Positions 43,611 to 48,933 of a DNA stretch of 64,000 bases are shown here, piece after piece. The stretch comes from a phage. The DNA is taken from the sequence record PQ327946.1. One strand, written 5' to 3'. The position numbers were made by a program, and so were the translations under genes. The notes under the pieces are model-generated. The model was not told where the DNA came from, did no database searches, and saw nothing but the letters and a program-made list of their open reading frames with translations. Positions within the stretch are counted from its first letter, which is position 1. The number at the start of each line of letters is the position of its first letter.

Positions 43611-44297
43611 TTAGAAGTCGTGAGTAGAATCGGCTTCCATCGCAATAACATAACTTACTTGAGGGCTTTCAAACTTGGCTGCAACTTTATCACCAGCTCC
43701 CCACAACATTACTTTATAATTACCCGGCTGAATTTTCATATTAGCCATATTGATTACGAAGTTAAAGTTGTTAGAACCATCATAATCGGTAAGAGTCAAA
43801 GAATACTTAGGACGAGTTAGTCCGGAATCTTCAACTTTATTATAGCCATTGATAACAATTTTACCATCTTTATTTGTAATAGCAATTGTATCAATCTGAA
43901 GACCACGTGAAACTCGAAGCAATTGTTGAAGGTCTTCAGCTTTAATTTCAGTAATCACAGAAGCCACTGGGAATTGAATTGGCTTATTAGGAAAAACAAT
44001 GGTGCTCTTGTCAGCGGCAGGCCAATAAACCGTGGAACGTGTATCTGCAATTTTAATATTGCCATCGGTGTGCATTGAAATTTCAGCATCATCAGACACT
44101 AGACTCAAAATGCTTAAGAAGCTATTCAAATCATAAAGTGCTACGTCAAAATCAATTTCATCAGAGATATTTGCTTCCGCATAAGTGGTGCCATTAACTG
44201 CACGAGTCATAATAAATTTACCTTGACTCAGCAGAATACCGGAGTTAATAGAGGCAAAGTTTTTCAGAATAGCGATAGTATCTTTAGACAGTTTCAT
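43611..44297 (-). CDS. 45: Sliding clamp gp45
   Basis: Start set at ATG MKLSKDTIAILKNF (228 aa, the T4 gp45 length); the track ORF begins at an upstream TTG. Confidence 0.9.
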   Translation of the reverse strand: MKLSKDTIAILKNFASINSGILLSQGKFIMTRAVNGTTYAEANISDEIDFDVALYDLNSFLSILSLVSDDAEISMHTDGNIKIADTRSTVYWPAADKSTIVFPNKPIQFPVASVITEIKAEDLQQLLRVSRGLQIDTIAITNKDGKIVINGYNKVEDSGLTRPKYSLTLTDYDGSNNFNFVINMANMKIQPGNYKVMLWGAGDKVAAKFESPQVSYVIAMEADSTHDF

Positions 44298-44337
44298 TTT
44301 ATTTCCTTTCAAGACAATTCAAAGTTTAACAAATTTA

Positions 44338-44754
44338 TTATGCAGCAACCATTTGCTTTTTAATAGCTTCAGGCAGTGATTCAATATATTCTGGAATTTT
44401 AGAAGCAACAATTTCGCCAGCTGCAATTAGTTGTTCGTCGGCATCAACACAATAGAAATCTTCCAGACGTTCAGAACCATCTTTATCAAGAACGATTTTT
44501 CCGCCGGCTTCAATAGAATCTTTATAGTGCTTACGCATCAGATGAATCCACATATCAGATACATCATTATCAATAAAACCATAAATCATAAAACGAGTTT
44601 CTTGTGGCAAAGATTGGAGTTTTTTAGCACTTGCGTCATCACAATGCAGGACCCATGCTTTACGAACACGATTATGGTTATGTGGGTTAGCGTCAGTACG
44701 GATAGAAGTAACTTTCAGATCAGCAGCAGTGAAACCTTTAGCAGTAGTAAACAT
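44338..44754 (-). CDS. rpbA: RNA polymerase binding protein RpbA
   Basis: 138 aa ORF directly upstream of gene 45 as in T4. Confidence 0.6.
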   Translation of the reverse strand: MFTTAKGFTAADLKVTSIRTDANPHNHNRVRKAWVLHCDDASAKKLQSLPQETRFMIYGFIDNDVSDMWIHLMRKHYKDSIEAGGKIVLDKDGSERLEDFYCVDADEQLIAAGEIVASKIPEYIESLPEAIKKQMVAA

Positions 44755-44766
44755 ATTATTTCTCTC

Positions 44767-44958
44767 TTATTCGTAGAAGTCGGTAACTGTCCATGCGGAA
44801 TTGCGATTAGACATTATTTTATTATACTCATCTTTAAAAGCAGATTTGAGCATTTGTTCGGTAACAATATGTTCTTCACCTGAAAACGTATTGGTCAAAA
44901 CATATTTTTTAATTTCAGGGACAACGAGAAGATGTTGCCCGGTTGAATACTCCGCCAT
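44767..44958 (-). CDS. Hypothetical protein (63 aa)
   Basis: ORF. Confidence 0.45.
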   Translation of the reverse strand: MAEYSTGQHLLVVPEIKKYVLTNTFSGEEHIVTEQMLKSAFKDEYNKIMSNRNSAWTVTDFYE

Positions 44959-44982
44959 TATAAATCTCCGTGTTTAAAGCAA

Positions 44983-44990
44983 TATAAATA
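44983..44990 (+). promoter_or_regulatory. Late-promoter-like TATAAATA upstream of the HNH endonuclease gene
   Basis: Exact TATAAATA on the + strand about 45 nt before the ATG at 45036. Confidence 0.4.
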
Positions 44991-45035
44991 GGTTTATCAA
45001 TTTATCTGTTGCTGTATCAAATAAGGATTTAGTAA

Positions 45036-45752
45036 ATGAATTATAACTCAATATACGAAAAGCTTATCGCCAATGCTAAATCAAGAAGTTTAGATGGTTA
45101 TACAGAACGTCATCACATTATACCACAATGTTTAGGTGGAAGTGATGATGCTTTAAACTTAGTAGACTTAACACCGGAAGAACATTATTTGGCACATCAA
45201 CTGTTGGTCAAAATCCATCCAGATAATGCCTCTTTAATATATGCCGCTCGTATGATGACAATATCATCTCCTAAAGCAGATAGAAGCAAAAACAAATTAT
45301 TTGGATGGCTTCGACGTAAGAATCAAGAAGTTCAAAAGAACAAAGAATTCACTGCTGAAACCCGTAAGAAAATGTCTGAAGCCGCTTTAAAGAGACCAAA
45401 GATTACCTGTCCACATTGTAATAAATCTGGATACGTTTCTAACATGCGTCGTTGGCATTTCGACAACTGTAAGCATGGACCCAACAAGTGTGTACATACT
45501 ATACCTGAATCACAAAAGCAAAAAATAAAAGACGGGTTAAAGAATGTGGTTCACACTATAGTCCAATGCCGGTATTGTAACATGGAAGGTATAAAGTGTG
45601 TTATAGCAGCACATGAAAAATTCTGTAAATCAAATCCCAATAGAAAGAAAAAAGAGGACAAGAAAATTCAGTGTCCTCATTGTGATAAAATAGGAATCCC
45701 TGCTAATATGTATCGTTGGCATTTTGATAATTGTAAACACAAGCCTCATTAA
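45036..45752 (+). CDS. HNH homing endonuclease with two C-terminal zinc-finger repeats
   Basis: 238 aa; HNH core ERHHIIPQCLGGSDDALNLVDLTPEEHYLAH; duplicated CPHCNKSGYVSNMRRWHFDNCKH / CPHCDKIGIPANMYRWHFDNCKH. Confidence 0.8.
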   Translation: MNYNSIYEKLIANAKSRSLDGYTERHHIIPQCLGGSDDALNLVDLTPEEHYLAHQLLVKIHPDNASLIYAARMMTISSPKADRSKNKLFGWLRRKNQEVQKNKEFTAETRKKMSEAALKRPKITCPHCNKSGYVSNMRRWHFDNCKHGPNKCVHTIPESQKQKIKDGLKNVVHTIVQCRYCNMEGIKCVIAAHEKFCKSNPNRKKKEDKKIQCPHCDKIGIPANMYRWHFDNCKHKPH

Positions 45753-47437
45753 GAGGCTTTCATTACAGTAAATCGTCCAACTTTGCTCATTTGAAGATGT
45801 TGTCCATAACGTTGAGGGTCATGGTCTCTATGAGAGATAATGAACACGTTAGTATTTTGTAAACTGCCAAGGATGGTATCTATAGCCTTAACAGCCTCAG
45901 AATCAACAGCTCCATCAAAAACCTCATCAAGAATCAACGTGTTGATTTTAACACCAGAAACCTTTTCGGCAATATCTCGCCATGTAAACAACAATGCGAT
46001 ATCGATACGTGCCTTTTCACCTTGACTAAATGAAGCATAACTGAACTCTTCACGACCACGTGATTTTATAGATTCATTGAATTCTTCATCAATAGAAAAC
46101 ACGTAATCAGCTTCCATGATTTTAAGATAATGGTTAATCTGCTTGTTGAACAGAGGCACATATTTTTTAATGATAGCACCTTTAATACCAGAATCTTTTA
46201 ACATATCTGTGATAATACCACGATGGTATTTTTCAAGAACGATATCTGATTTTGTTTTAATGATTTTATCAAGTTCTTTTTGAAGCAAAGCTATCTCATC
46301 GGCATGGTCGATAAATTCTGCTGAGGCTTGTTCTATTGCGGCTTTAACTTTCTTAGCTTTATCAATAGTGGCAATCATTGCTTGTTTCTTGGTACGAATA
46401 TCAGATGCAAGGTCCTGTTTAGTCTTAACATTAGCTCTATATTCGTCCACTAGGACACTCAGATTATCTCTGTGACATGTAAGTTGCTCGAATGAGTGAT
46501 TACATTCGTGAAGCTTATCGGTAATCTTAGAGACAATAGGGTCACCCTGGTGCAACTGTGACGCACAAGTAGGACATGTGCCACCGTCATGATACATCTT
46601 AATAACTTTGTTATATGAGTCGATTTTAGATTTAATCAAGAATGCTTCTTGTCCGATCTTGTTGAATGCCTCAGTAGGGTCTTCATCAAGAACGATATTA
46701 AGTAGTCGCTCATTAGCTTCTTCGATTTCTGCTTTTAATGAACGAGCTTCTTTGGCTAGGTCATCATACATATTCTGTAGACGCGCTACATTATCACCAG
46801 ATAATTTCTTTTGACGTTCGATATTCTCGTTATAAATCTTAATTTGTTGGATAACACCATCTTTCTTGGCATCGAGAACTTGTCCCTGGGAATTAAGTTC
46901 TCGAACTTGAGACTTATTGATTTTATCCATTTCAGCGAGTGTGCCGACTTCTAAAAGGTCTTCGACAAGTTTTCTACGAGCAGGGGTGCTAAGAGCCATG
47001 AAAGGGGTATACCCTGCCGTCCCAAGCACAACGATTTGTTTAAAAGACGCGTATGACATTCCGATGCTACGTTCAAATTCTTCTTGGAAGTCACGACTGC
47101 TGGCAGATTCATCGAGACGAACACCGTCAACGGAGATTTCGAAAATATTGGGCTTTTGGCCACGTTTAATGAAGTATTTTTTACCATCGAATTCCATCCA
47201 AAGCTCAACTAAGAGCTCTTTCTTGTTCGTGCTATTAATGATTTGCCCTTTCTTAACATCACGAAATGGTTTACCGAAAAGTCCGAAAGTAATGGCTTCT
47301 AACATCGTAGATTTACCACCACCATTTTTACCAGTGATTAATGTCTTTTGGACTTTATCTAATTGGATGTCAATAGGATTCCCACCTACCGACATGATGT
47401 TTTGATAACGAACACGATTTAATTTAAATGATTTCAT
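45749..47437 (-). CDS. 46: Recombination nuclease subunit gp46 (Rad50/SbcC-like ATPase)
   Basis: 562 aa; Walker A TGKNGGGKST, coiled-coil middle, zinc hook CPTC, signature/Walker B region LILDEVFDG. Confidence 0.85.
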   Translation of the reverse strand: MKSFKLNRVRYQNIMSVGGNPIDIQLDKVQKTLITGKNGGGKSTMLEAITFGLFGKPFRDVKKGQIINSTNKKELLVELWMEFDGKKYFIKRGQKPNIFEISVDGVRLDESASSRDFQEEFERSIGMSYASFKQIVVLGTAGYTPFMALSTPARRKLVEDLLEVGTLAEMDKINKSQVRELNSQGQVLDAKKDGVIQQIKIYNENIERQKKLSGDNVARLQNMYDDLAKEARSLKAEIEEANERLLNIVLDEDPTEAFNKIGQEAFLIKSKIDSYNKVIKMYHDGGTCPTCASQLHQGDPIVSKITDKLHECNHSFEQLTCHRDNLSVLVDEYRANVKTKQDLASDIRTKKQAMIATIDKAKKVKAAIEQASAEFIDHADEIALLQKELDKIIKTKSDIVLEKYHRGIITDMLKDSGIKGAIIKKYVPLFNKQINHYLKIMEADYVFSIDEEFNESIKSRGREEFSYASFSQGEKARIDIALLFTWRDIAEKVSGVKINTLILDEVFDGAVDSEAVKAIDTILGSLQNTNVFIISHRDHDPQRYGQHLQMSKVGRFTVMKAS

Positions 47438-47688
47438 ATGTATTCTCTTCGAATGAAGTCCTCTACATATTTTAACATGTCATCTCTATCAGCAAAATAT
47501 TCATCTAGTTCTGCATACATAACAACACCTGGTGCGTACTCACAGGTAACATACATTGTTCCAAAGAAACGAGGAGTTGATTCCTCGTAATTCTCAGTCC
47601 ATTCAACGATACCAATATAACCGTCACCAATACTAAATTCATGACGATGGATTTCATAATCAGTCTTCGTCATTATACGCGTCCTCAA
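47434..47688 (-). CDS. Hypothetical protein (84 aa)
   Basis: ORF between 47 and 46. Confidence 0.5.
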   Translation of the reverse strand: MRTRIMTKTDYEIHRHEFSIGDGYIGIVEWTENYEESTPRFFGTMYVTCEYAPGVVMYAELDEYFADRDDMLKYVEDFIRREYI

Positions 47689-47917
47689 TACATGCTTCAG
47701 CCATTTTAAGAATAGAACCAGGAGTATCGTTGTCCATTATATTAAAGCTAAATTCAATAGCCCAGTCGGTGCAGACATGAACTGCTTTAACTTCATTGCC
47801 TTCAACGCGTAATGGCTCAATCCAATACTTGATAGCGTTCTCAAATCCATCATCGTCTTTAACGTCCATTTCAACTTCAAGTCCAAGCCCAGCATTGTTA
47901 AATTCATCTAAAGTCAT
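47660..47917 (-). CDS. Hypothetical protein (85 aa)
   Basis: ORF. Confidence 0.45.
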   Translation of the reverse strand: MTLDEFNNAGLGLEVEMDVKDDDGFENAIKYWIEPLRVEGNEVKAVHVCTDWAIEFSFNIMDNDTPGSILKMAEACIEDAYNDED

Positions 47918-48933
47918 TGTGTTGCCTCAATATAAAGTTCGTTGGAATATTTGACCAGCGCTTCTCTGTCTTCGTCTGAGATATCTGGAATCGCGTCAAT
48001 ATATTCTTTAATGATATCTTGAAGTGATTTAATCTCGATTTCCTGGTCGTCATCAGATTCAACACTGTTATCAACTTTAGAAACCATACGAAGAGAGTGA
48101 ACTACTTTTTCAAGTTCAGATTCAAACTTAGTCAACTCTGAATCAATTTCTGATACTATAACACGTATGGCTAGATTAGTATAATCAGAATAATTGATTT
48201 TGCCTTTAAACGGATAAGTGATTCGTCGATGCCATGTTGTTTCATTAGGAATAAATTCCATACGTTCAACATCAGTGTCAAATACCCAGAATCCGCGTGG
48301 GTCGTTCTCATCACCTGCAGTAAGTGTCCACGGTGTCCCAATATATTTGACGTTAGCAGCTTCAGAGATTGTGTGGAAGTGGCCGGACCAGACTTGTTTA
48401 TAGGTCTTTAAGAAATCAGGTTCAAGCCCATGAGACTTCATTCCTTTATAGAAATAAAAGCCGTTCAGTTCCCAGTGACCAACACAATACGCCGCGGAAG
48501 AAGTCTTGATGTGCTCTAAGATTTCACCTGTATTTTCTTCACACATCCATGGAATGATATCAATCAGACATCCGTCAAAATCTACAGTAGTTGGATGTTC
48601 GTAAATAGTAAAGTTTTCAAATTGAGTTAACAATTCAGAAACAGTGTTAGGTGTTATTGTATTCTTAAACGCCATGTCATGGTTTCCTATCGTGACATGA
48701 ACGTGAATGCCTGCTTTAGAAATCATATCAACGATTTCACGATTGAATTCCATCGTACGATGTGTAATTGCTTTACGGACGTCAAACCAATCACCGTACT
48801 GAATCCAAGTTTTAATCCCGTGTTTCTTAGAGTATTCAATTGCTTGACGAATACCATCACGTTGAATATCTTGAACCCATGGGTCGTCTTGTTTGACTCC
48901 GATATGGAAGTCGCCTAAGTGCAAAATTTTCAT
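47914..48933 (-). CDS. 47: Recombination nuclease subunit gp47 (Mre11/SbcD-like phosphoesterase)
   Basis: 339 aa; MKILHLGDFHIG and GNHD calcineurin-like motifs; T4 gp47 is 339 aa. Confidence 0.9.
   Translation of the reverse strand: MKILHLGDFHIGVKQDDPWVQDIQRDGIRQAIEYSKKHGIKTWIQYGDWFDVRKAITHRTMEFNREIVDMISKAGIHVHVTIGNHDMAFKNTITPNTVSELLTQFENFTIYEHPTTVDFDGCLIDIIPWMCEENTGEILEHIKTSSAAYCVGHWELNGFYFYKGMKSHGLEPDFLKTYKQVWSGHFHTISEAANVKYIGTPWTLTAGDENDPRGFWVFDTDVERMEFIPNETTWHRRITYPFKGKINYSDYTNLAIRVIVSEIDSELTKFESELEKVVHSLRMVSKVDNSVESDDDQEIEIKSLQDIIKEYIDAIPDISDEDREALVKYSNELYIEATQ

Follow-up and report, generated by a model that had tools for sequence, protein, structure and literature searches.

What is the gene that lies on the opposite strand from all its neighbors between genes 45.2 and 46 of a T4-like phage, and which DNA does its product recognize? 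The question is raised by sequence record PQ327946.1, of which a stretch of 64,000 nucleotides (nt; hereafter the window) was analyzed. The phage behind the window is T4-like and belongs to the Mosigvirus group, a 20-kb stretch being 96–98% identical to many Mosigvirus records and identical to none. A 238-amino acid (aa) open reading frame (ORF) occupies positions 45036–45752 of the + strand between genes 45.2 and 46, and the genes around it are all on the − strand, exactly as the first-pass annotation had described. Both the mosaicism of T4-like phages and marker exclusion among them are shaped by free-standing homing endonucleases; to our knowledge, mapped targets exist for only a few, namely MobE and some Seg enzymes. 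Our data indicate, with a probability of roughly 85%, that this is a cassette carrying a free-standing homing endonuclease gene of the T4 Mob (HNH) family. The kind is already known, as relatives at this site carry the name 'homing endonuclease' in RefSeq (F2 gp056, Ozark gp057, and Bp7 gp161). What is new here is a putative central DNA-binding segment, unlike all else found, behind a common nuclease domain.

The protein is homologous to T4 MobE, taken as the ORF between nrdA and nrdB in a T4 assembly, over residues 1–236, last zinc finger included (BLASTP; 33% identity, E=1e-32), and it matches PHROG 655, 'homing endonuclease' (E=8e-64). Together with the common empty-site alleles described below, these matches support the interpretation as a homing endonuclease with which the locus was originally annotated; endonuclease activity and homing of this particular gene are properties that we infer from such relationships. 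A tblastn search with the window protein found five places in one T4 genome, and the N-terminus of T4 mobC is 38% identical to it. The sequence search of PDB gave only marginal HNH-motif matches (E=0.4–0.8), and NCBIfam gave nothing meaningful. The HNH catalytic core extends from E24 to H54 (HH..N..H; 45105–45197, + strand), and in its motif, ERHHIIPQCLGGSDDALNLVDLTPEEHYLAH, residues E24, H26, H27, N41, H50, and H54 are invariant among the 51 family members aligned. The catalytic histidine, structural asparagine, metal-binding histidine, and beta-beta-alpha fold of the HNH superfamily are all found in the window protein, as judged from this alignment and an AlphaFold model built from it (mean predicted local distance difference test [pLDDT], 91), in which the fold is predicted at the HNH core. 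No other part of the protein is as well conserved as the nuclease domain. When the window was compared with F2 and with metagenome contigs L012 and L013, aa 1–113 differed by 0 nonsynonymous and 5–6 synonymous codon changes, and the ORF was intact in 10/10 Mosigvirus alleles checked, a pattern of purifying selection on the endonuclease ORF.

The distribution of the gene is that of an insertion that is variably present at one intergenic site, as is characteristic of free-standing Mob-type genes. A megablast search with the 2-kb region matched 284 records, with the endonuclease gene covered in 14, and the remaining close relatives were collinear and ~739 nt shorter; occupancy is thus ~9% of Mosigvirus records (14 of roughly 150 at 90% identity or more). 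Comparison of the 45.2–46 junction across T4-like genomes, the check proposed along with the first description, showed that empty-site alleles are the majority among close relatives; the refuting pattern named there, a gene conserved at this site in every relative, did not appear. The empty spacer measures 54 nt in PNJ-9, JS09, Shf125875, phiC120, vB_EQ1, and others and 55 nt in T4. Members of the sub-family occupy this junction, likewise oriented, in at least Mosigvirus-type phages (F2, ST0, ESCO47, G2285, and mar005p1), Tequatrovirus (Ozark, G4498, KMB39, Pu-Krd-SF4, and fFiEco06), Dhakavirus (Bp7 and FB), and T4-like phages of Klebsiella and Yersinia, with an allele length of 717 nt in most and 726–735 nt in two Klebsiella alleles. 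Roughly 180–260 phage records hold a homologue, and no paralogue was found within the window. A scan of IMG/VR with gp45.2 gave two loci only, both with an empty site. In the literature, we found no paper on this insertion site, and reviews of T4 mobile elements and T4 genomes made no mention of 45.2.

Alignment with the empty allele of PNJ-9 delimits the whole cassette at 44954–45759, where 806 nt stand in place of 67 nt of the empty allele (net +739 nt), with one end in the first codons of 45.2 and the other in the final three of gene 46. The edges are identical when an occupied and an empty Tequatrovirus (Ozark and T4, respectively) are compared. At the left edge, gene 45.2 (44767–44958, − strand) takes its start codon, an extra alanine codon, and its ribosome-binding site from the cassette, its product beginning M-A-E-Y-S in occupied alleles and M-E-Y-S in empty ones. 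At the right edge, the final three codons of gene 46 (45749–47437, − strand), which encodes a Rad50/SbcC-like recombination nuclease subunit, are recoded by the cassette, and its C-terminus reads ..VMKAS* in the window versus ..VMTVS* in PNJ-9. The endonuclease gene and gene 46 are convergent, and their stop codons overlap by 4 nt (TTAA). Both stop codons fall in the loop of a terminal hairpin (AAGCCTC-ATTAA-GAGGCTT; 45741–45759) that is conserved in F2, Bp7, FB, and YenP8, with RNA fold z-scores of −5.6 on the + strand and −5.0 on the − strand. The empty-site spacer has its own hairpin and a look-alike of a MotA box plus TATAAT, both of which are deleted by the cassette.

Behind the nuclease domain, the protein comprises, in order, a NUMOD3-like helix, a C2HC finger, a second NUMOD3-like helix, and two further C2HC fingers. 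Helix 1 (EFTAETRKKMSEAALK, aa 104–119; 45345–45392, + strand) aligns through residues 104–116 with the Pfam-verified NUMOD3 of T4 MobE, and many relatives carry PF07460. Helix 2 (TIPESQKQKIKDGLK, aa 155–169; 45498–45542, + strand) was assigned by resemblance only, from the family alignment and a predicted helix at residues 158–169. The fingers are three C-x2-C-x11-12-H-x3-C modules rather than two: finger 1 (C125-x2-C128-x12-H141-x3-C145; 45408–45470, + strand) and finger 2 (C178-x2-C181-x11-H193-x3-C197, CRYC..HEKFC; 45567–45626, + strand), each predicted to form a beta-hairpin plus a helix, and finger 3 (C213-x2-C216-x12-H229-x3-C233; 45672–45734, + strand), which has the same predicted fold and is shared with T4 MobE, and whose C213, C216, H229, and C233 are invariant in the 51 family members. 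Compared with the TFIIIA-like spacing C-x2-4-C-x12-H-x3-5-H/C, fingers 1 and 3 have x12 and finger 2 has x11. The top Foldseek matches for the model were the finger arrays of CTCF and TFIIIA, below significance (E=0.08–0.5), and Pfam zf-C2H2 gave no better than E=0.3, a match restricted to MobE and F2. The first-pass annotation had noted two near-identical Cys/His modules and read them as a duplicated zinc-finger module. Both modules exist, at aa 125–145 (CPHC..NMRRWHFDNC) and aa 213–233 (CPHC..NMYRWHFDNC), but they are similar only (19/27 aa and 73% of nt identical, 45399–45475 vs 45663–45739), and there is a third finger besides. The reading as a duplication does not hold: because the three-finger array is conserved across the family and T4 MobE has one such finger, the array is an old family feature and not a recent duplication in this phage.

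The window allele differs from its relatives in a single block. Against F2-type alleles, aa 1–113 form an identical protein with 6 synonymous codon changes, aa 114–205 (45375–45650, + strand) carry 50 nonsynonymous and 11 synonymous codon changes and are 46% identical, and aa 206–238 are 94% identical. This mosaic segment is allele-specific, unlike the F2-type and all else found: among 50,697 phage records, the best match to the central 291 nt was 68% over most of the length, with short stretches at 82–89%, and in a collection of 5.8 billion proteins only the P0001 cluster came close (97%), every other protein being at most 64% identical in aa 114–205. Two metagenome contigs encode exactly this protein and two more a 97% variant (L010–L013), always at the 45.2/46 junction; these four contigs are the only carriers found, the window-type allele not being found in the 50,697 phage records. 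The allele of mar005p1 is a third Mosigvirus type, with a nuclease domain 97% identical and different middle and C-terminal parts. Judged from these comparisons, the window allele is in all likelihood a recombinant that combines the common nuclease domain and last finger with a different central DNA-binding segment.

Several observations speak for past mobility. The endonuclease of the window is 75% identical to that of Dhakavirus FB, with gp46 at 65%, and 60% identical to that of Tequatrovirus Ozark, with gp46 at 82%; the phylogeny of the endonuclease is thus incongruent with that of the flanking gene 46. A tract of ~140 nt in gene 46 (45810–45948, − strand), which codes for the segment from Walker B to the H-loop, is ~33% divergent, with amino acid changes, in 5/5 F2-type occupied Mosigvirus alleles and in 0/6 empty ones. 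Five occupied Tequatrovirus alleles compared with T4 behave similarly: their gene 46 is 62–86% identical over its final 250 nt and 98–100% thereafter. No comparable divergence was seen on the 45.2/rpbA side. The F2 tract encodes MDSATD..EGIKAI, as does a Yersinia-phage allele, and because of this agreement it was probably imported from a distant donor along with the endonuclease gene. By analogy, the one-sided tract looks like co-conversion during homing, precedents for which come from SegG (PMC2988022) and from MobE (PMC2790892). The tract boundaries coincide with sequence coding for conserved motifs, which may have favored crossovers there. Judged by the divergent tract in occupied alleles, the likely target is near the 3′ end of gene 46, inside the gene. 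The equivalent insertion-free site of relatives had been proposed as the target; flank divergence places the likely target within gene 46 and not at the junction itself. We put the odds that this location is correct at about even.

As a separate observation, the F2-type phages (L002, L022–L024, and L005) encode a gp46 whose C-terminus is chimeric between Walker B and the H-loop (LIMDEVMDSATDSEGIKAISTILNSLTDANVF) and in part matches a Yersinia-phage allele, so an essential recombination protein is altered beside a mobile element. In Bp7 (L004, 3900–5400), gene 46 beside the endonuclease gene is annotated as two pieces of 183 nt and 1239 nt, and the alignment contains indels. This split could be a sequencing error or endonuclease-associated fragmentation of the gene, which has reportedly occurred in nrdA of phage Aeh1.

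The gene has an apparent late-type promoter of its own, as first described. An octamer of the T4 late-promoter type, TATAAATA, lies at 44983–44990 (+ strand), 45 nt upstream of the ATG; it would serve as a −10 element, with no −35 element, on the late strand and opposite to the early genes. Its occurrence alone is within chance, and the weight of the putative promoter comes from its position being conserved across genera: the octamer lies 33–45 nt 5′ of the ATG in 6/8 representative loci of different genera, among them F2, Ozark, Bp7, FB, and Roth04, and it is degenerate in YenP8 and Prick1. A Shine-Dalgarno sequence (AAGGA; 45023–45027, + strand) lies 8 nt before the ATG. Between promoter and Shine-Dalgarno sequence, a leader block, TTTATC..GCTGTATCAAA (44995–45022), is conserved in several genera beyond expectation for an untranslated leader; it might act as an operator or in translation. 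A scan of the region for sigma-70 promoters and terminators gave no more sites than shuffled sequences. Two candidate features of the leader were rejected. A hairpin sequestering the ribosome-binding site, as in mobE, is unsupported, as the leader fold has a z-score of −0.64 and no significant structure. A copy of the target in the leader, in the manner of I-TevI, was the other. When the leader was set against the 3′ part of gene 46 and the region of the empty site, for both Mosigvirus and Tequatrovirus, the closest matches were 15/20 and 14/20, within the range of shuffles, 18% of which reach 15/20.

Two further promoter-like sequences were observed. Inside the cassette, ATTGCTTTA-N12-TATAAT (44957–44982, − strand) is a look-alike of a MotA-dependent middle promoter; it stands back to back with the late octamer, its −10 overlaps the ATG of 45.2, a comparable element is present in the native spacer of empty alleles (PNJ-9 and T4), and it is missing from the cassettes of Ozark and Bp7. 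At the edge of the window, the sole other + strand TATAAATA (974–981) lies directly 5′ of a 219-aa ORF (1002–1661, + strand), which is probably a genuine late gene.

A number of results weigh against the interpretation as a homing endonuclease cassette, or against parts of it. The window protein does not reach the Pfam gathering thresholds for HNH domains (PF01844, 12.7 bits with a cut-off of 21.4; PF14279, 14.7 bits with a cut-off of 27.5); T4 MobE clears PF01844 at 24.6 bits and also passes for NUMOD3, for which neither the window protein nor its 101–175 segment gave a Pfam match. The octamer TATAAATA occurs 4 times in the window versus 7.1 expected, with no excess over chance. In the literature, no cleavage, transcript, or homing data were found for the 45.2/46 sub-family. 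The boundaries of the divergent tract are identical among occupied alleles within each genus, which suggests one old acquisition per lineage, followed by mostly vertical descent, rather than frequent homing. Finally, the carriers of the window-type allele (the window and L010–L013) have a native gene 46 sequence without the divergent tract; either the target lies elsewhere, or a few synonymous single-nucleotide polymorphisms (SNPs) give immunity, or the enzyme no longer cuts there. Whether the endonuclease is currently active is, on this sequence evidence, about evenly poised.

The native gene 46 beside the window allele can also be explained by natural retargeting. Under this explanation, finger 1, NUMOD3-like helix 2, and finger 2 (aa 114–205) would have been swapped behind an unchanged HNH domain, recognition of native gene 46 would have been altered or abolished, and the carrier would have reverted gene 46 to the native sequence. 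We regard this as a tentative and rather unlikely proposal. Gene 46 of the window type has four fixed synonymous differences from six empty alleles, and the best of 88 empty-site records is 96.0% identical over 45835–45985 (151 nt); a cluster of SNPs at 45848, 45866, and 45872 shows only a marginal excess over the rest of the gene (p=0.048) and serves as a lead only. If the explanation were true, the variants sharing one nuclease domain (window-, F2-, and mar005p1-type) would be traces of an arms race in which endonuclease specificity is pitted against target immunity, and Mob-type enzymes would be natural modular 'zinc-finger nucleases'.

It is less probable that the gene is a resident relic or a domesticated nuclease that entered each lineage once long ago, was inherited vertically with occasional loss, and has since either stopped homing or been retained because it helps the phage, for instance by excluding co-infecting relatives or by stimulating recombination locally. 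In line with it are the tract boundaries, which every occupied allele shares with the others of its group (F2-type Mosigvirus or Tequatrovirus), the deep divergence of the endonuclease between genera (47–78% aa), and the native-type gene 46 beside the window allele, as expected if that sequence is uncut; two publications (PMC11620839 and PMC13096335) also present phage homing endonucleases as acting in competition or anti-defense. Low occupancy and diverse flanks (ESCO47 and G2285 differ upstream) argue against a relic, as do the incongruence with gp46 and an intact ORF under purifying selection. Moreover, exclusion and homing read out the same cleavage, and domestication would therefore overlap with the homing endonuclease interpretation rather than replace it. 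Very improbable is a mainly regulatory protein, an autorepressor or modulator of 46/45.2 expression with a vestigial nuclease domain, for which three zinc fingers with two NUMOD3-like helices, a possible operator in the conserved leader block, and the double role of I-TevI as an autorepressor (PMC2988022) could be cited, but which is opposed by catalytic HNH residues invariant in 51 relatives, by the nuclease domain being the best-conserved part, and by a leader lacking significant similarity to gene 46. A packaging-type HNH protein (HK97 gp74-like) was rejected because of the context of a replication/recombination module and of the Mob homology.

The homing endonuclease interpretation suggests the following course of events. 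Late in infection, transcription of the gene would start at its own late promoter, TATAAATA, the early/middle replication genes being on the other strand. In a mixed infection, the enzyme would bind the endonuclease-free allele at a long, asymmetric site and nick or cut it there, most probably in the terminal ~200 nt of gene 46. Recombination-dependent repair of the T4 type would then copy the cassette, together with adjacent gene 46 sequence, into the recipient. The cassette would supply its neighbors with a new 45.2 start and ribosome-binding site, a recoded gene 46 terminus, and a shared terminal hairpin; insertion would therefore be cheap for the phage.

The surroundings of the cassette are those of the replication and recombination genes, all on the − strand: gene 45 (43611–44312), with genes 44 and 62 beyond it, and rpbA (44338–44754) on one side, and two small ORFs (47434–47917) and gene 47 (47914–48933) beyond gene 46 on the other. 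Pfam Phage_RpbA and Gp45_2 are recorded for identical neighbor genes on metagenome contigs. Between 1.7 kb and 64 kb of the window, no further credible + strand ORF of at least 150 aa was found. The two small ORFs, 46.1/46.2-like and 84 and 85 aa in length, lie on the far side of gene 46, where PNJ-9 (L001, 3886–4262) and F2 (L002, 4627–5003) have a different, 861-nt gene, annotated as 'HNH endonuclease' in F2; beyond position 47435, identity of the window to PNJ-9 and F2 falls to 25–44%. Gene 46 seems to be flanked by a second variable nuclease site, at 47434–47917.

The element is ordinary in kind, and its recombinant DNA-binding segment is a modestly interesting twist. Its wider relevance lies in a widespread 45.2/46 sub-family beside an essential recombination gene, with a chimeric gp46 C-terminus in carriers, which matters when therapeutic T4-like coliphages are compared or engineered. 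In addition, three allelic DNA-binding variants with one nuclease domain represent a compact natural system for the study of specificity change in modular HNH enzymes.

Among known systems, T4 MobE is similar in its N-terminal HNH domain (HHIIP..GG.D..N..LT..EH), a NUMOD3 repeat at the same position, and a C-terminal CPHC-x12-H-x3-C finger, and it is likewise free-standing between conserved genes and missing from some relatives. Wilson and Edgell (2009; PMC2790892) describe a strand-specific nick by MobE in a neighboring conserved gene, repair consistent with double-strand-break repair, and a promoterless mobE co-transcribed with nrdA, whereas the window gene is opposite to its neighbors and has its own late-promoter-like octamer. 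The two also differ in location (nrdA/nrdB versus 45.2/46) and in composition, as MobE has one finger and three Pfam NUMOD3 stretches and the window protein has three fingers and two NUMOD3-like helices. For SegG at gene 32 and other seg/mob elements of T4, cleavage takes place at a distance, and flanking markers are co-converted (PMC2988022). SegG shares with our locus a free-standing endonuclease gene beside a conserved essential gene and a one-sided imported flank tract, but it is a GIY-YIG enzyme, and the tract described here comes from comparative genomics only. I-TevI and I-TevIII resemble the window gene as late-promoter-driven endonucleases in an early/middle unit with zinc finger(s) in a modular DNA-binding region (PMC2988022); the window gene differs in not being intron-encoded, in its array of three C2HC C-x2-C-x12-H-x3-C fingers, and, from I-TevI, in a leader in which no operator-like target copy was detected. 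The 45.2/46 'homing endonuclease' genes (F2 YP_010068820, Ozark YP_010072623, Bp7 YP_007004119, FB, YenP8, Roth04, and Prick1) share with the window gene the junction, orientation, architecture, promoter octamer, and terminal hairpin. The nuclease domain of the window is 98–100% identical to the F2-type, whereas its central 92 residues are 46% identical to the F2-type and at most 64% identical to any relative, and the adjacent gene 46 tract, divergent in F2-type phages, is of the native type in the window.

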